From an uncultured Candidatus Saccharibacteria bacterium (lineage in GTDB: Bacteria; Patescibacteriota; Doudnabacteria; UBA920): 64,000 bases of DNA. Shown here piece by piece: positions 6,547 through 60,154 of this stretch. Numbering within the stretch: the stretch's first letter is position 1; each line of letters opens with the position of its first letter. Position numbers and translations under genes: made by a program. The notes beneath the pieces are model-generated. The model was not told where the DNA came from and searched no databases. It worked only from the letters and a program-made list of their open reading frames with translations. The DNA lies in the NCBI GenBank assembly GCA_964505635.1, contig CAZDIP010000004.1, positions 7,198-71,197 on the forward strand, in the 5' to 3' direction.

Positions 6547-6852
6547 ATGAAAGTATTTGATGAATTAACAGGCGGAGTATATAGAAAAGGCGAATCGAGA
6601 GAAAGTTTGCTAAAAAGAGCCAAGGAAAAATTTCCGGATCAATTTTCTAAAATAGACTCGTTAAAAGAATTTTATTTTGACCCTATTTTAAAAGAGAGAT
6701 TTTTAGATTTAGAGACCAGCCTTATGCAGTGTGTGGAAAACGGATACCAACACAGGGAACTCTCAGAAATGCTTAATGAGTGGGAAAAAGAGTATGAATT
6801 TTTAAAAACACATGCAAAGCGACTTGATTCAAATTCTCAAAAAGCGGCTTAA
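6547..6852 (+). CDS. Hypothetical protein (101 aa)
   Basis: ORF track only; overlaps the start of the next gene by 41 nt. Confidence 0.35.
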   Translation: MKVFDELTGGVYRKGESRESLLKRAKEKFPDQFSKIDSLKEFYFDPILKERFLDLETSLMQCVENGYQHRELSEMLNEWEKEYEFLKTHAKRLDSNSQKAA

Positions 6853-8011
6853 ACATCCAATCTTAATTAAGAAAAAAGAAAACCTGCTGTATTTAACCGG
6901 CAGGAGCTTTGATTACAGGGCGGAGGAATATCTGTTAATTTTACCCCTCACCCCCACCCTCTCCCACAAGGGGAGAGGGGGAGATAGTGTGATTGGGTTT
7001 GGCAGCGGGCTTGAGCAGATAGATTGGGTCAAAAAGTCAGATAGGCTAAAGAACATCGGCCAATATTTAAAAGGTTATAAACAGTTGGATATTGAGTACG
7101 GGTTTACTTATGGGGAAGGAGAATATTTGAAATATAAGATTTCCTCCTTCGCTAAAGCTATGGCGGACAAGTCAGATTTAGGATATAAGATTTTGGTGAA
7201 ACCGGAAAGAAGTTTGGTTGATGTTATGAGGCAGATAAAAAGCATGGAGGAACTGTCTAAAATAAAAAAATCAATGCAGATTGTAGAGAAAGTATTTGCG
7301 CTTGTAAGAAAAGAAGTTAAAAAATCGGGGATGACGGAGAGAAAATTGGCTGATTTTATTACCAAGACTGGTTATAAATTTGGCGCACACGATGTTTCTT
7401 TTCCAGCAATTATAGCAAGCAGGGCAAATGCTGCTATACCTCACCATGTCCCATCAAACAAGTTTTTAAAAGCGGGGGAAAGCATAATTATAGATTTTGG
7501 TTTTAAGTACAAAAATTACTGCAGCGACTTTACGCGTACGGTGTTTTTAAAAAAAGTGCCCAAAAAATTGGAAATTGCCTATAATCAAGTAGAAAAGGCG
7601 TATAATGGAAGTATGGAGTATATCTCAAATCCATCCCGAGCGCGGCCGAGGGATCCCTCAAAACAAGAAAAAGGGATTCTTCCCCCGCATCAAGTGCGGG
7701 GTCTGAATGGTAATACAATTACCGGTAATGATGTTTATCAAAAAGTTGTTGATATTTTGGCTGAAAAAAAATTAGACAAATATTTTATTCATTCTTTAGG
7801 CCATGGTACGGGTTTGGAAATTCACGAATTGCCCAATCTTTCGCCCGACTCAAAAGATGAACTTAAAAATGGAATGGTTTTTAGCATTGAACCGGGAGTG
7901 TATATCCCTAAATTAGGTGGTATAAGAATTGAAGATTTGGTATATTTACAAAATGGCAAAGTTAATAAATTTATTAATGTTTCAGCGAAACTAAAGGATA
8001 ATATTTTATGA
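6812..8011 (+). CDS. pepP: Xaa-Pro aminopeptidase / M24B family metallopeptidase; contains two repeat-derived in-frame segments
   Basis: Creatinase-like N-domain, then the M24 catalytic core (HDVSFPAIIASRANAAIPHH...DFGFKYKNYCSDFTRT...HSLGHGTGLEIHE...EPGVY...RIEDLV). Repeat copies lie in frame at 6944-6984 and 7631-7710. Confidence 0.85.
   Translation: MQSDLIQILKKRLKHPILIKKKENLLYLTGRSFDYRAEEYLLILPLTPTLSHKGRGGDSVIGFGSGLEQIDWVKKSDRLKNIGQYLKGYKQLDIEYGFTYGEGEYLKYKISSFAKAMADKSDLGYKILVKPERSLVDVMRQIKSMEELSKIKKSMQIVEKVFALVRKEVKKSGMTERKLADFITKTGYKFGAHDVSFPAIIASRANAAIPHHVPSNKFLKAGESIIIDFGFKYKNYCSDFTRTVFLKKVPKKLEIAYNQVEKAYNGSMEYISNPSRARPRDPSKQEKGILPPHQVRGLNGNTITGNDVYQKVVDILAEKKLDKYFIHSLGHGTGLEIHELPNLSPDSKDELKNGMVFSIEPGVYIPKLGGIRIEDLVYLQNGKVNKFINVSAKLKDNIL
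6944..6984. repeat. Family-2 palindromic element (ccctcacccccaccctctccc-acaa-ggggagagggggaga), in frame inside pepP
   Basis: Shares the ctcccacaaggggaga hairpin core with the rpsG copy and the ccctcacccc / gggggaga ends with the nfo copy. Confidence 0.75.
7631..7710. repeat. Family-1 repeat copy B plus adjacent ccccgca-tcaagt-gcgggg hairpin, in frame inside pepP
   Basis: ccatcccgagcgcggccgagggatccc is ~85% identical to the intergenic copies. Confidence 0.75.
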
Positions 8012-9548: not shown

Positions 9549-10493
9549 GTGCTATCTATTGGCTGTCATGTTAGCGCCGCTGGAGGAGTCTGGAACGCGC
9601 CTAAAAATGCGGCTAATTTGGAATGCGAAACTTTTCAAATTTTTACCAGGCCGCCTATGGGCGGACCAGCGCCTAAAATAGATGAAGAAGCAGCGGACAA
9701 GTTTAAGACCGAGATGGAAAAGTATAAGTTTACAGACTTCGTTATTCATTGCCCTTATATTGTTAATTTTGGTTCTGCTAAAAAACCTACATATCACGGC
9801 TCTATTGGTATTGTTTCCGAAGAACTTAAACGGGCAAATAGTTTGGGAGCAAAATTGGTAATGACCCACTTAGGAAGCTTTAAGGACTTAGGGCAAGAAA
9901 AAGGCATGAAGCAGACGCAAAAAGGTTTTGTGGAAGTTTTGGAAAAATATGAAAAGGCATCAAAGAACCCAAAAACCGAATTTTTGCTGGAAATAGCAGC
10001 CGGTAGTGGGGAAGTTATTGGCGACACTTTTGAAGAATTGGCGGAGCTTATGGAACCCTTAAAGAAATTTAAAACTTTCGGGGGAATTTGTTTTGACACC
10101 CAGCATGCTTTTTCAAGCGGTTACGACATTAGAGATAAAAAATCTGTTATAGAGACATTTAAAAAGTTTGAAAAAGTAATAGGCCTTAAGTGGCTTAAAA
10201 TGTCGCACATTAACGACTCCAAAGTGCCTTTGGGCGGCAAGAAAGACAGGCATGAGCATATTGGCGATGGGGAAATAGGGAAAAAGGGGTTTGAGGCGCT
10301 GATTGGATATTTTGAAACCCTCACCCCAAAAACCCTCTCTACCCCTCGGCTTCGTTCGGGGCATCAACGCCAGGCGGGGGAGAAAAATAATGTTGCTTTC
10401 GGCGGCTTTCCCTTGATTCTTGAGACAGAGCATGATAAAGTCAAAAAAGATATAGAAATATTAAAAAATATAAGAAATAAAATTTATGTTTAA
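9549..10493 (+). CDS. nfo: Endonuclease IV (AP endonuclease, TIM-barrel) with a ~28-aa repeat-derived in-frame insertion near the C-terminus
   Basis: GTG start; MLSIGCHVSAAGG...HCPYIVN...MTHLGS...DTQHAFSSGYD...DRHEHIGDGEIG...PLILET. Insertion TLTPKTLSTPRLRSGHQRQAGEKNNVA relative to E. coli Nfo. Confidence 0.85.
   Translation: MLSIGCHVSAAGGVWNAPKNAANLECETFQIFTRPPMGGPAPKIDEEAADKFKTEMEKYKFTDFVIHCPYIVNFGSAKKPTYHGSIGIVSEELKRANSLGAKLVMTHLGSFKDLGQEKGMKQTQKGFVEVLEKYEKASKNPKTEFLLEIAAGSGEVIGDTFEELAELMEPLKKFKTFGGICFDTQHAFSSGYDIRDKKSVIETFKKFEKVIGLKWLKMSHINDSKVPLGGKKDRHEHIGDGEIGKKGFEALIGYFETLTPKTLSTPRLRSGHQRQAGEKNNVAFGGFPLILETEHDKVKKDIEILKNIRNKIYV
10317..10386. repeat. Family-2-related element inside nfo, in frame
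   Basis: accctcaccccaaaaaccctctct...cgccaggcgggggaga. The internal ccaggcgggg also resembles the intergenic hairpin at 36795-36815. Confidence 0.65.
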
Positions 10494-37560: not shown

Positions 37561-38157
37561 ATGCCAAGAAAATCACGTTCATACGACAAACACACTCCCG
37601 ATCCGGATCCAAAATACGGTTCGGTTAAATATGCTAAATTTATTAACTATTTAATGGAGCGCGGCAAAAAAAATGTAGCCCGCAAGATTTTTTACGATGC
37701 CTTGGAAATAGTGGGGGAAAAGGCGAAAGATTTAGCTAAATCTGCGCCGGTTGCTTCAAAGACCCCCTCATCTGCCGCGTCTAAAGACGCGGCACCTTCT
37801 CCCACAAGGGGAGAAGGAAATAAGGAAAAATCTTTGGACGGAAGACAGGTTTTTGATATAGCCTTAAAAAACATAGCGCCGATTATGGAATTAAAGTCCC
37901 GCCGTATTGGCGGAGCTAACTATCAGGTGCCTATGGAAGTTATGGAACCGCGCAAAACCACTCTTGCCATGCGCTGGCTTTTGATTGCCTGCCGTGCGAA
38001 AAAAGGCGCCCGGATGGCCGAAAAGTTGGCCGCTGAAATTATGGAAGCCTTTAACAAACAAGGCGCGGCTATTAAAAAACGCGAAGATGTTCACAGGATG
38101 GCAGAAGCCAACAAAGCTTTTGCTCACTTTGCTAGGTTTGGGAATAAGAGGAGATAA
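37561..38157 (+). CDS. rpsG: 30S ribosomal protein S7 with a ~38-aa repeat-derived in-frame insertion
   Basis: S7 core (KSRRIGGANYQVPMEV...KREDVHRMAEANKAFAHF). 198 aa versus ~156 typical; inserted segment LAKSAPVASKTPSSAASKDAAPSPTRGEGNKEKSLDGR is encoded by palindromic DNA. Confidence 0.93.
   Translation: MPRKSRSYDKHTPDPDPKYGSVKYAKFINYLMERGKKNVARKIFYDALEIVGEKAKDLAKSAPVASKTPSSAASKDAAPSPTRGEGNKEKSLDGRQVFDIALKNIAPIMELKSRRIGGANYQVPMEVMEPRKTTLAMRWLLIACRAKKGARMAEKLAAEIMEAFNKQGAAIKKREDVHRMAEANKAFAHFARFGNKRR
37775..37817. repeat. Family-2 element inside rpsG, in frame (hairpins gccgcgtc-taaa-gacgcggc and cttctccc-acaa-gggagaag)
   Basis: Seen directly; accounts for the S7 insertion. Confidence 0.8.
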
Positions 38158-56595: not shown

Positions 56596-59145
56596 ATGTC
56601 GTTTGAGTTAAGCGCAATCAATATTGCCCTTTTGCTGCTGCCGGTTTTAGTAGCAGTGTTTTTGGGTTTAGGATTTTATTTTTTTAAACGCCATGTTTAT
56701 CATAAAAAACATATTATTCCAAGGACTTTGGATTGGGTATTTTTGGAAGTGCAGATGCCTAAGGACAATATTGACGAAAAAGACAAGCCAAAAAATGAAG
56801 ATGAAAAAAAACGTTTAATTGCCGTTGCTGAACAGCTTTTTACCACGCTTTCGGAAAGCACTCATAAAAAGGGCTGGCTTTTGGGTAAAGATTACTATAG
56901 TTTTGAAATTGCCTGTACGGATAAAAAAATATCTTTTTATATAAATTGTCCTAAACATTTGCAGGAGCTGGTGGAAAAACAGGTTTTGGCCCAGTACCCG
57001 CACGCGTTTATAGAACAGGTAAAAGGCTATAATCCGTTTATAAAGGGAGGAACCTTGGAAGTAGAGGAGCTTGAGTTATCTAAACAATATATTTACCCTT
57101 TTAGAACCTATAAAACAACCGAGTCAGATCCTCTTAATGCCATAACCAATGCTATGAGCAAGCTTTCGGAGAACGAGGGCGCGGCCGTGCAGTTTATATT
57201 GAGCCCGGCAGGCACAGCCTGGCAAGGCAGACCGAGGCGCATGGCTTTGGAAATCCAGCAGGGTAAGAATCCCGAACTGGTGGAAAAAAGCCATTTTTCC
57301 AGAATGTTAATCGGTCTTTTGCGCGCGGTTGGCGGAGGGCTTTGGGGGGTGGGCAAGGGAAAAAATTATCAATCTTCCCACGCTCACAAAGACTTAATGG
57401 GCTATTATGCCCCCATACAGCTTACGCCCATGCAGCAGGAAATAGTAAAGAAGTTGGAAGAAAAAGCCAGTAGGCCGGGGTATAAAACCAATATCAGAAT
57501 TGTAACTTCTTCGGCTGTGCCTGGCGCGGCGCAAGTGCACATGAGGAATTTGCTTGCTAGTTTTTTGCAGTTTAATATGCCCCCCTTTAACGGCATTAAA
57601 ATAAAAAAACGTGATAAGAATGACATTTTAAAAGATTATATTTTTAGAGTTTTTCGGGCGAACAATAAGCGCGGTATTTTAAATACCGAGGAATTGGCCA
57701 GTTTGTGGCATCTGCCGACTTTGTATTTGGAAACGCCGAATATTAAGTGGCTGCAAAGCAAAAAAGCCCCGCCGCCCATTAATTTACCGGATTCAGGCAT
57801 TTTGCTTGGCAGGAATATTTACAGAGGCCTAGAGACGCCTATTTTTATGGCGCGCGAAGATAGACGCAGGCATACGTATATTTTAGGCCGCACCGGAGGT
57901 GGTAAATCAGTGCTTTTGGCCAATATGGCTCTGCAGGATATAAAAAACGGTGAAGGTGTTTGCGTAGTGGATCCGCACGGGGATTTAGTTCAGGATATTT
58001 TGGAGCGAGCGCCCAAGGAACGCGCCGAAGATATTATTGTGTTTGAGCCTTTTGACATGGACAGGCCTATTGGTCTGAACATGTTGGAAGTTGACAGTGA
58101 GGAACAGAAAGATTTTGCGGTGCAGGAAATGATCTCTATTTTTTACAAATTGGTTACCGATCCTGCCATGTTAGGGCCGATGTTTGAACATAATATGCGC
58201 AACGCCATGTTGACTTTAATGGCTGATGAGGAGCACCCGGGCACTATTACAGATATTCCCAGAATTTTTACAGATACAGAATTTCAGCGTTATAAAGTAG
58301 AAAAATTAAAAGATCCGGTGGTGAGGTTATTTTGGGAAAAAGAGATGGCCAAAACTTCCGATTTCCACAAGTCGGAAATGCTCGGTTATTTAATTTCCAA
58401 AGTTGGCCGGTTTGTGGAAAATGCCATGATGAGAAATATTGTCGGGCAATCCAAATCCGGGTTTAACTTCAGGAAAGTTATGGATGAAGGCAAGGTTTTA
58501 CTGGTTAATCTGTCTAAAGGCCGAACCGGGGAAATAAACGCTAAACTGCTTGGTTTAATTTTTGTCAGTAAAATTCAAATGGCAGCCATGTCAAGGGCGG
58601 ATGTTCCGGAGGATAAACGGAAGGATTTTTATTTGTATGTAGATGAGTTTCAAAATTTTATTACCGACGCTTTTTCTTCTATTTTGTCTGAAGCCAGAAA
58701 GTATCGCCTAAATTTAATAATCGCGCATCAGTATTTAGGCCAGTTAGAGCAGCAGGCAGGGGCGCAGGGAGCGGCTAGTAAAGATTTGCGGGACGCTGTG
58801 TTCGGCAACGCCGGGACGTTAATTACCTTTAGAACCGGGGCAGAAGACGCGGAATTTTTAGCCAAAGAGTTTTCGCCCACTTTTAACCAATTTGACCTAG
58901 TCAATATTGACCGTTTTAATACCTACTTAAAACTCATGGTCAACGGCACGGCTTCCAAGCCTTTTAATATGGCCACCAATCCTTTACCTAAAGACGTAAA
59001 TGTGGAAATGGCTGTGGCTGTTCGCAATCTTTCCAGGCTTAAATATGGCAGGTCAAGGACAGAAGTGGAGTCAGAACTTTTGGAAGCCAGCAAGGTGGCG
59101 GAAAGCATGTCCGAAGCTTTGCCTGAAATTGAACGTGGTTTGTAA
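56596..59145 (+). CDS. Membrane-anchored P-loop ATPase of the VirD4/TraD/HerA (DUF87/TraG-D_C-like) class with a ~400-aa N-terminal domain of unknown function
   Basis: N-terminal TM helix; Walker A ILGRTGGGKSVL (~res 430); Walker B YLYVDEFQNF (~res 690); 849 aa. Confidence 0.6.
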   Translation: MSFELSAINIALLLLPVLVAVFLGLGFYFFKRHVYHKKHIIPRTLDWVFLEVQMPKDNIDEKDKPKNEDEKKRLIAVAEQLFTTLSESTHKKGWLLGKDYYSFEIACTDKKISFYINCPKHLQELVEKQVLAQYPHAFIEQVKGYNPFIKGGTLEVEELELSKQYIYPFRTYKTTESDPLNAITNAMSKLSENEGAAVQFILSPAGTAWQGRPRRMALEIQQGKNPELVEKSHFSRMLIGLLRAVGGGLWGVGKGKNYQSSHAHKDLMGYYAPIQLTPMQQEIVKKLEEKASRPGYKTNIRIVTSSAVPGAAQVHMRNLLASFLQFNMPPFNGIKIKKRDKNDILKDYIFRVFRANNKRGILNTEELASLWHLPTLYLETPNIKWLQSKKAPPPINLPDSGILLGRNIYRGLETPIFMAREDRRRHTYILGRTGGGKSVLLANMALQDIKNGEGVCVVDPHGDLVQDILERAPKERAEDIIVFEPFDMDRPIGLNMLEVDSEEQKDFAVQEMISIFYKLVTDPAMLGPMFEHNMRNAMLTLMADEEHPGTITDIPRIFTDTEFQRYKVEKLKDPVVRLFWEKEMAKTSDFHKSEMLGYLISKVGRFVENAMMRNIVGQSKSGFNFRKVMDEGKVLLVNLSKGRTGEINAKLLGLIFVSKIQMAAMSRADVPEDKRKDFYLYVDEFQNFITDAFSSILSEARKYRLNLIIAHQYLGQLEQQAGAQGAASKDLRDAVFGNAGTLITFRTGAEDAEFLAKEFSPTFNQFDLVNIDRFNTYLKLMVNGTASKPFNMATNPLPKDVNVEMAVAVRNLSRLKYGRSRTEVESELLEASKVAESMSEALPEIERGL

Positions 59146-59204: not shown

Positions 59205-59414
59205 ATGGCACACGGTGGGCATGGAGGAGAATCGCATAGTAAGTCTGGCGGTGGGGGCGGCTTTTTTCGTAGTATGGTTGAGGGTTTTGTGGATCCGGTT
59301 TCAGAGGCTATAGGCGGTAACGCCCAAAAAATAGTAAATAAGGAAATAAAAGGTTTAATTTCAACCGGCAAGGGTGGGGGTGGCAAGGGTGGGGGTGGTC
59401 ACGGACATCACTAG
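59205..59414 (+). CDS. Small glycine/histidine-rich protein (69 aa)
   Basis: MAHGGHGGESHSKSGGGGG...GKGGGGKGGGGHGHH; low complexity. Confidence 0.35.
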   Translation: MAHGGHGGESHSKSGGGGGFFRSMVEGFVDPVSEAIGGNAQKIVNKEIKGLISTGKGGGGKGGGGHGHH

Positions 59415-59524: not shown

Positions 59525-60154
59525 ATGGATAACGATAAACTTTCTCATTTGGCCATGGTTATGCAGATGCTGGATTCTGCTGAGAAAAATACTCAATCTG
59601 CCAAACAGCTTTTAAAAGATATTATAGGGGGTAAGGAAATTAAAACAGCTTATTCCGCGGTTTCCGCGCTTTCTGAAAAGGCGTCGACTTTTTCCGTTTC
59701 TGAAGGCGGAAAGGTGATTGAAGGCGTTTTTGACGGGCAAAATATGATAGGCCCGGACAAAAAGCAGTATCCGGTGCCGGCTAATTACGCTTCCAAGTCC
59801 AAATTGGTGGAAGGCGATGTGTTAAAATTAACTATTGCCGAAGACGGGTCTTTTATATATAAACAAATTGGCCCGGTTAACCGTAAAAAAATGCTCGGCA
59901 TTTTGGTAGTTGACGACAAGGGTGATTTTAGAGTCATGGCTGAAGGGAAACCTTACAAAGTTTTATTGGCCAGCTTAACTTATTTTAAATCTGAACCCGG
60001 AGACGAGGTTACTATTGTGGTGCCTGAAGATCAGGAAACTGACTGGGCGGCAGTGGAAAATGTTATAAAAAAGGGCACTTCCAGCGCTCATACCGATTTG
60101 GAAATGGGCGATTCAAAAAATAAAGTTTTGCTGGACGAAGACGAAGAATTATAA
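59525..60154 (+). CDS. Hypothetical protein (209 aa)
   Basis: ORF track. Confidence 0.45.
   Translation: MDNDKLSHLAMVMQMLDSAEKNTQSAKQLLKDIIGGKEIKTAYSAVSALSEKASTFSVSEGGKVIEGVFDGQNMIGPDKKQYPVPANYASKSKLVEGDVLKLTIAEDGSFIYKQIGPVNRKKMLGILVVDDKGDFRVMAEGKPYKVLLASLTYFKSEPGDEVTIVVPEDQETDWAAVENVIKKGTSSAHTDLEMGDSKNKVLLDEDEEL

Follow-up and report, generated by a model that had tools for sequence, protein, structure and literature searches.

In a 64-kb window of Doudnabacteria DNA (64,000 nucleotides of contig CAZDIP010000004.1; all positions below are those of the window unless another contig is named), the gene pepP, which encodes a Xaa-Pro aminopeptidase, carries a GC-rich repeat of 36 nucleotides (nt) and three blocks at positions 6944 to 6979, oriented on the minus strand. 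Judged from a pattern match, a profile match and comparison with empty orthologues, this element belongs to the BoxC / PIT / TM_ECO family and does not represent a new one. What is new, as far as the sequences tell, is the host phylum, the location inside a gene where the repeat is predicted to be translated, and the composite forms in which it occurs. We consider it probable (about 0.7) that the element is a small, non-autonomous repeat that is selfishly copied and that is tolerated in disordered loops of proteins.

Family membership of the pepP element

The motif has been treated by Hoyne et al. (2000 and 2002) and by Holder et al. (2015; PMC4666352), and the TM_ECO pattern, formerly BoxC and PIT element, is given as 5'-CCCTCNCCC N3-6 GGGNGAGGG N3 GGGNGAGGG-3', in which C-rich and G-rich stems are followed by another G-rich block, a mirror of the first G-rich one (PMC4666352). 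The published pattern matched exactly and only once in the window, at 6945 to 6979 on the minus strand; 100 shuffles gave no match. The blocks CCCTCTCCC, GGGAGAGGG and GGGTGAGGG were identical to those of E. coli copies (Table 1 of PMC4666352); the loops alone differed, and their lengths of 5 and 3 nt were within the published ranges. Additionally, 47 copies from outside the window were made into a profile, which recovered 6941 to 6982 with an E value of 1.8e-12. The exact core CCCTCTCCCNCAAGGGGAGAGGG was found in more than 120 IMG/VR contigs among the matches listed, at GC contents of 40 to 75%, and in these listed matches it very often had CCCCTCACCC(C/T)NN ahead of it, either alone, as in pepP, or together with a hairpin in between. 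When the core-bearing viral contigs of low GC content were checked for genic copies, their copies appeared to be intergenic.

In E. coli K-12, 23 copies of TM_ECO have been tabulated, and a census counted 3610 copies in 262 proteobacterial genomes (PMC4666352). The E. coli copies are strictly intergenic, have no promoter, terminator or regulatory activity, and mark sites of raised local sequence variability between strains; the isolated strand folds in vitro into an intrastrand triplex that is stable, but none that was stable was detected in vivo (PMC4666352). The Doudnabacteria repeats resemble TM_ECO in being dispersed, present in multiple copies, patchy among relatives and tied to locally variable sequence. 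In contrast to the always intergenic and proteobacterial TM_ECO, however, they belong to a lineage of the candidate phyla radiation (CPR), have copies inside genes that are read in frame, and form composites with nested hairpins in either loop. Our literature search returned no earlier report of such repeats in coding genes of the CPR, which is not proof of absence. A preliminary description of the window had characterized the element correctly but had not recognized it as the published BoxC / PIT / TM_ECO repeat. With regard to the triplex, the second G block of related copies with asymmetric stems followed the mirror rather than the direct arrangement in 15 cases versus 0, with 8 ties, on differences of only 1 nt and with the window copy itself symmetric; this comparison weakly supports a triplex-type architecture.

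The element in its coding context

The host gene (6812 to 8011, plus strand) encodes an Xaa-Pro aminopeptidase / M24 peptidase of 399 amino acids (aa) that matched Pfam Peptidase_M24 with an E value of 4.9e-53. The letters of 6940 to 6990 are tttaCCCCTCACCCCCACCCTCTCCCACAAGGGGAGAGGGggagatagtg, and the minus strand of the element reads CCCTCTCCC-CTTGT-GGGAGAGGG-TGG-GGGTGAGGG-G. On the plus strand, a C-rich block is followed after 2 to 3 nt by a hairpin whose stem is C-rich before the loop and G-rich after it, and as the first block resembles the stem, a triplex-forming mirror repeat was suspected. The third block, CCCTCACCC (GGGTGAGGG on the minus strand, the block also found in the E. coli TM_ECO table), occupies 6945 to 6953, and folding placed the hairpin core at 6957 to 6979, where CCCTCTCCC and GGGAGAGGG form a perfect stem of 9 bp around the loop ACAAG. 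With up to 3 mismatches, the 23-mer core occurred twice in the window, which has a GC content of about 40%, and not once in 100 dinucleotide-preserving shuffles. In its local context, the fold had modest z-scores (-1.7 and -2.6).

Twelve in-frame codons of pepP derive from the plus strand of the element and give PLTPTLSHKGRG as residues 45 to 56; residues 46 to 60 are LTPTLSHKGRGGDSV, the gene reads through the element as ..LLILPLTPTLSHKGRGGDSVIGFG.., and the peptide predicted from the open reading frame (ORF) across the insert is ..LLILPLTPTLSHKGRGGDSVIGF... The hairpin is present and in frame, as the preliminary description had stated, but the extent of 41 nt given there was too long: the alignment of PepP homologues that had been proposed set the inserted unit at 36 nt (12 codons) by comparison with empty orthologues. 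The suggestion that the element is compatible with coding was borne out by its length of 36 nt and by the lack of stops in five of its six frames. In an AlphaFold2 model (mean predicted local distance difference test, or pLDDT, 87.7), residues 45 to 56 form a low-confidence loop that joins strands 40 to 43 and 60 to 64, and the model thus places a Pro/Gly-rich loop of 12 residues between two β-strands of the N-terminal domain of PepP. The insert probably has no function of its own in PepP, and we infer that it is neutral.

Two other identities for the hairpin were rejected. An intrinsic terminator does not fit, as the hairpin is followed by GGAGATAGTGTG and not by a T-run, and lies 132 nt into an ORF of 1200 nt whose frame continues. 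A structured RNA family was not indicated either, the Rfam search of the window, taken at the gathering score, having given two tRNAs only and nothing at the element.

An insertion hot spot in pepP

The PepP alignment comprised 49 orthologues and was extended to 114, and it located a hot spot after ..EEYLL(V/I). The site was empty in 59 of the 114 sequences, which have a short conserved turn V-T-K-K-x-V-V-G, and 13 had a peptide from the triplex-motif repeat (PLTP(T/A)LS(H/R)KGRG, PSPRPSPKGRGG and similar). The remaining 42 carried inserts not of the triplex-motif type, hairpin repeats of other families included: 19 were of the "P-INTD-KKR-INTD" type, 7 were of the "RKDAE..AE.RG" type, and 16 were others. 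L004, the closest relative (71% aa identity), was empty at the site, and the net insert in the window was exactly 36 nt. Among the window, L001 and L002, the 36-nt element was 92% identical, versus 68% for the codons upstream. In a neighbor-joining tree of the conserved columns, the repeat-bearing alleles were scattered, and their nearest neighbors were empty or had another family at the site. The closest pair of a filled and an empty allele, L209 and L126 (84% aa identity), showed a block insertion after ..TT(A).

Other insert families, at least three of them, were seen at the same codon (site 1 of pepP), with the INTD type in L136, L138 and L142 and the DAE type in L135 and L143. The pepP gene of L139 (10001 to 11185) had at site 1 a strongly folding element of 99 nt (-47.9 kcal/mol) that encodes SRRHSERSEESQRKRSFGRQRRPQDDA. 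Farther downstream, at 7630 to 7710 of the window (residues ~273 to 303), a third variable insert splits the M24 domain; it has low pLDDT, varies in every orthologue, and holds an adjacent pair of hairpins, gagggatccct..agggattcttc and ccccgcatcaagtgcgggg (-34.5 kcal/mol, z = -2.8). A triplex-motif variant was found at this last site in L004 (10752 to 10772).

Copying of a composite between pepP and nfo

The pepP copy of L209 has a passenger of 30 nt (tccaccttcgctaaagctacggcggacaag) exactly in its hairpin loop, and the composite of repeat and passenger (69 nt) was also found in nfo on the same contig, with 66 of the 69 bases shared (96%), including a 5' TTA, and with further similarity 3' of the G stem. 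The composite is read in different frames in the two genes, as PLTPALSRSTFAKATADKKGRG in pepP and as PSPQPSPAPPSLKLLRTRRGEG in nfo. Such a recurrence is possible only when copying followed the nesting event, and the comparison thus shows a composite duplicated between genes and provides direct evidence for copying between loci. The passenger is an independent dispersed repeat family that occurs alone and nested within other triplex-motif copies. In the window, it is the unit CTTCGCTAAAGCTATGGCGGACAAG (25 to 30 nt) at 7140 to 7175 of pepP, a second repeat family in frame that contributes residues ~110 to 121 (ISSFAKAMADKS), which most PepP orthologues do not have; the unit was nested in the repeat loops of L209, L135 and L139 and stood alone in L129, L138, L143, L145 and L150.

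Relatives in rpsG and nfo

The window contains a composite relative in rpsG at 37763 to 37817 (plus strand), within an ORF of 198 aa (37561 to 38157; Pfam Ribosomal_S7). It consists of the third block CCCCCTCATC (37763 to 37772), a separate hairpin TGCCGCGTC-TAAA-GACGCGGCA (37773 to 37794) and the core CCTTCTCCC-ACAAG-GGGAGAAGG (37795 to 37817), and it encodes ..PSSAASKDAAPSPTRGEG..; the same layout was found in many of the listed IMG/VR contigs and in the pepP allele of L152. The preliminary description had noted a core common to pepP and rpsG, and we found the same, with two differences between the copies, C>T and G>A, that preserve the stem because they are the two sides of one base pair. 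The rpsG copy folded at -16.6 kcal/mol (z = -3.0), and the out-of-window profile detected its hairpin at 37798 to 37819 (E = 1.8e-4). S7 orthologues had a linker of 20 to 70 aa rich in Ala, Pro and Lys at the place of the insert, and many retained remnants of the PSPxKGEG type that were variously decayed. The Doudnabacteria S7 proteins (P0121 to P0240) ranged from 174 to 225 aa because of this hypervariable linker, which lies between ALEIVGEK and LDGRQVFD, and some of them, e.g., P0154 and P0235, had two repeat-derived segments.

A decayed composite relative was found in nfo (endonuclease IV; ORF 9549 to 10493) at 10318 to 10383 (plus strand), in a C-terminal linker that is variable among nfo orthologues. 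It starts with the 10-mer CCCTCACCCC (10318 to 10327) and CCCTCTC and ends with the 8-mer GGGGGAGA (10376 to 10383), the terminal sequences that had been reported as common to the pepP and nfo inserts, but its core stem is lost. The stretch had no significant fold (z = +1.4), and the family profile missed 10318 to 10383, because the copy is an old and decayed composite. The orthologous nfo insert of L209 has an intact TCTCTCCC-GAAA-GGGAGAGA hairpin together with a nested hairpin, and it is only through this sequence that the insert of the window is tied to the family. The three inserts grouped together in the preliminary description do form one superfamily, in which those in rpsG and nfo are composite and, in nfo, decayed.

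Distribution in genes and intergenic DNA

A census was taken in 721 kb of Doudnabacteria-like pepP neighborhoods (the window, L001, L002, L004 and L126 to L160), and it yielded 28 hairpins of the triplex-motif type, of which 21 also had the third block. Among these 21 three-block copies, 13 were in ORFs of at least 300 aa, 6 were intergenic, and 2 were ambiguous. Bases outside ORFs of at least 100 aa made up about 10% of the 721 kb, and the intergenic enrichment was about 3-fold, with binomial P values of 0.016 for six copies and 0.0007 for eight. By comparison, the pepP loci of other phyla (646 kb) contained one hairpin and no three-block copy. The genic copies were in pepP (sites 1 and 2), at two sites in nfo, and in TatD, TGT and GlyRS, and the same loops of nfo, GlyRS and TatD were often struck in different genomes. 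All three frames of the element (LS.., PSP.. and LP..) were used in the genic copies, as were both orientations.

These counts do not bear out a reading of the family as all coding, since 6 to 8 of the 21 were intergenic. The window has one intact and two derived copies per 64 kb, and at a coding density of about 90%, three of three copies in genes is unremarkable (0.9^3 = 0.73). Similarly, the in-frame bias that had been suggested is contradicted by the use of all frames and orientations, and the pepP and rpsG copies of the window already differ in frame. Non-coding copies and copies in all frames, which the preliminary description had itself set against such a bias, were largely what we observed; therefore, the family is not specific to coding sequence and has no preferred frame. 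Selection against frame-breaking copies, which had also been put forward, is the natural explanation for the copies seen in genes, and the in-frame status of the latter is survivorship inside essential genes, helped by a stop-poor unit of 12 codons.

Other hairpins and repeats were also observed. A hairpin CCTTCTCCC-loop-GGAGAAGG with no third block was intergenic in L132 (17475 to 17512), L139 (17907 to 17944) and L143 (18373 to 18410) and was followed in each by a conserved tggccggagg.cggat; this may be a piece of a conserved small RNA, not a copy of the repeat. In the window, a G-rich tandem at 59364 to 59406, with ggcaagggtgggggtgg twice, lies between the end of one ORF at 59145 and the start of the next at 59525 and could form a G-quadruplex. 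Inverted copies of a hairpin-containing sequence of 28 nt, AAAACAGCCTCGCAATCGCGAGGCTGT, at 2036 to 2066 and 2970 to 2997, flank the ORF at 2100 to 2948 and look like gene-end terminators. The plus strand holds almost all of the 68 ORFs that reach 90 aa or more, and because the GC skew is positive across the window, it is probably on one replichore with its genes co-oriented with replication.

Discussion

To our knowledge, the BoxC / PIT / TM_ECO repeats, although known since the 1990s, have no assigned function and no evidence for the way in which they spread, and they have been reported as strictly intergenic and proteobacterial; the CPR genome that carries the motif here is ultra-small. Several other repeats invite comparison. 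REP and REPIN sequences are short GC-rich hairpin repeats that are mobilized by RAYT transposases, and REPs are regarded as species-specific and extragenic; for cyanobacteria, Elhai et al. (2008) reportedly described dispersed repeats that are very small and nested. Both groups consist of short GC-rich hairpins that are not known to have target-site duplications, and the nesting of one repeat in the loop of another resembles the Doudnabacteria composites. Unlike a REPIN, the pepP copy is a singlet with no inverted doublet at the locus. The hairpin core of the pepP element is shared with palindromic repeats of Enterobacter sp. 638, CCCTCTCCCXX(X)GGGAGAGGG, which number 100 copies at gene 3' ends and are presumed to be terminators (PMC2869309), whereas in pepP the core lies within an ORF, no T-run comes after it and its loop is 5 nt long. 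A parallel in genomic behavior is found in the Rickettsia palindromic elements (RPEs), palindromic repeats that lie in frame within housekeeping genes not related to one another, in a genome that is reduced; permissive positions tolerate them, and they have been proposed as selfish DNA from which new protein segments arise (PMC10969869). The in-frame copies in the unrelated conserved genes pepP, rpsG, nfo and those for GlyRS, TatD and TGT follow the same course. However, RPEs are about 100 to 150 bp long, encode one conserved peptide in one frame and are confined to Rickettsia, while the pepP-type unit is 36 nt (about 4 times shorter), is read in either orientation and in all of the three frames, and is part of a family that extends across phyla.

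Given the family identity of the element, its in-frame location in a loop, its patchy presence at a hot spot and the duplication of a composite between two genes, we favor an account in which the repeat would be copied between loci of Doudnabacteria as a small non-autonomous element. Because these genomes have almost no intergenic DNA, many copies would persist inside genes, and a copy would survive only where it adds an integral number of codons to a permissive, disordered loop. The pepP copy would be such a survivor, transcribed and translated as a surface loop of 12 residues. Copies would then gain nested passengers in their loops and decay to lineage-specific loop sequence, as may have happened in rpsG and nfo.

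Several observations weigh against this account. The E. coli family has no link to mobile elements (PMC4666352), in contrast to the L209 composite that is found copied between two genes. No transposase, RAYT-like gene or other mobilizing enzyme turned up, although the ORFs of the window were not scanned for transposases and none was sought, and the copying mechanism is thus one that we infer. Translation of the insert is predicted from the intact ORF only. When L209 and L126 were examined for a target-site duplication, as the preliminary description had proposed, there was none, nor was there a clean junction, and the 3' flank was rewritten; the terminal inverted repeats with target-site duplication that define miniature inverted-repeat transposable elements were thus not what we saw. 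The PepP tree is a neighbor-joining tree of a single gene with no support values. In a metagenome scan with the flanks of L002 and a gap of 0 to 30 nt, there were 0 empty alleles within the species, and a control scan with a gap of 31 to 61 nt recovered three filled alleles, all identical. Finally, the higher conservation of the element than of its flank and the stem-preserving change in rpsG would fit selection on nucleic acid structure as well.

Such selection is the main rival to copying. It would make the element a functional hairpin or triplex of mRNA or DNA, with translation as a side effect, and the structure could act in translation pausing between folding units, in mRNA stabilization, or as a replication or recombination signal. 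The element is more conserved across species than the codons beside it, the two copies of the window differ by a paired change under which the stem stays intact, the third block seems to mirror the stem, which a triplex would need, and other lineages have different hairpin-forming repeats at the same position of pepP. Nevertheless, we regard selected structure as unlikely, since 59 of 114 orthologues, closest relatives included, do without any insert, and copies are spread over unrelated genes and intergenic DNA and occur in every frame and in either orientation. Moreover, the copies in S7 and nfo have decayed in place, the z-scores of the fold in its local context are modest, and the E. coli repeats showed neither promoter, terminator or regulatory activity nor a stable triplex in vivo (PMC4666352).

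Slightly less probable still is a single ancient insertion into pepP followed by many precise losses or replacements, with gene conversion holding the consensus and no recent mobility. The insert is fixed and invariant in the three alleles of the L002 species, the S7 insert appears to be one old insertion common to a subclade, and the C-terminal insert of nfo is common to the window and L209. In pepP, however, the empty alleles share V-T-K-K-x-V-V-G, which would have had to be restored at each excision, and the alleles with the repeat have a scattered distribution and unlike junctions on both sides. Additionally, the pepP site holds unrelated repeat families, and the pepP/nfo composite of L209 shows copying between loci.

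It is very improbable that PepP and other proteins acquired the encoded peptide, PLTPxLSxKGRG, as a motif with a function in the protein. The same peptide does recur in PepP of several species, but the DNA behind it gives PSPxRGEG in S7 and nfo, and in GlyRS and at site 2 of pepP it gives LALPxKGRE; therefore, it is the DNA that is conserved and not the peptide, and the loop is of low confidence in the AlphaFold2 model. A chance resemblance of low-complexity sequence or an assembly artifact, to which the simple composition (C/T-rich and then G/A-rich) might point, is refuted by the shuffles without a match, the profile E value and the recovery of the same insertion in independent JGI, ENA, NCBI and Logan assemblies.

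A more far-reaching version of copying, which we put forward tentatively and regard as doubtful, is that motifs of the BoxC / TM type are actively mobilized across phyla and insert into single-stranded loops. As targets, other extruded hairpins would offer their loops, and genes would offer specific A-rich sites that encode turns; insertion of this kind would explain why the very same codon of pepP, nfo, GlyRS and S7 has been hit repeatedly and independently. If this were true, the repeats would be a major source of lineage-specific loop expansions in essential proteins of the CPR, and Doudnabacteria would offer the first system of filled and empty sites for the insertion chemistry of a 30-year-old orphan repeat. 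Under the account that we favor, a selfishly copied repeat tolerated in disordered loops, the family would provide a route from selfish hairpin DNA to lineage-specific protein loops, as has been proposed for the RPEs of Rickettsia. For the annotation of CPR genomes, low-complexity inserts of the PSPxxGEG and LTPxLSxKGRG types should then be expected to be derived from repeats and not to be functional motifs.

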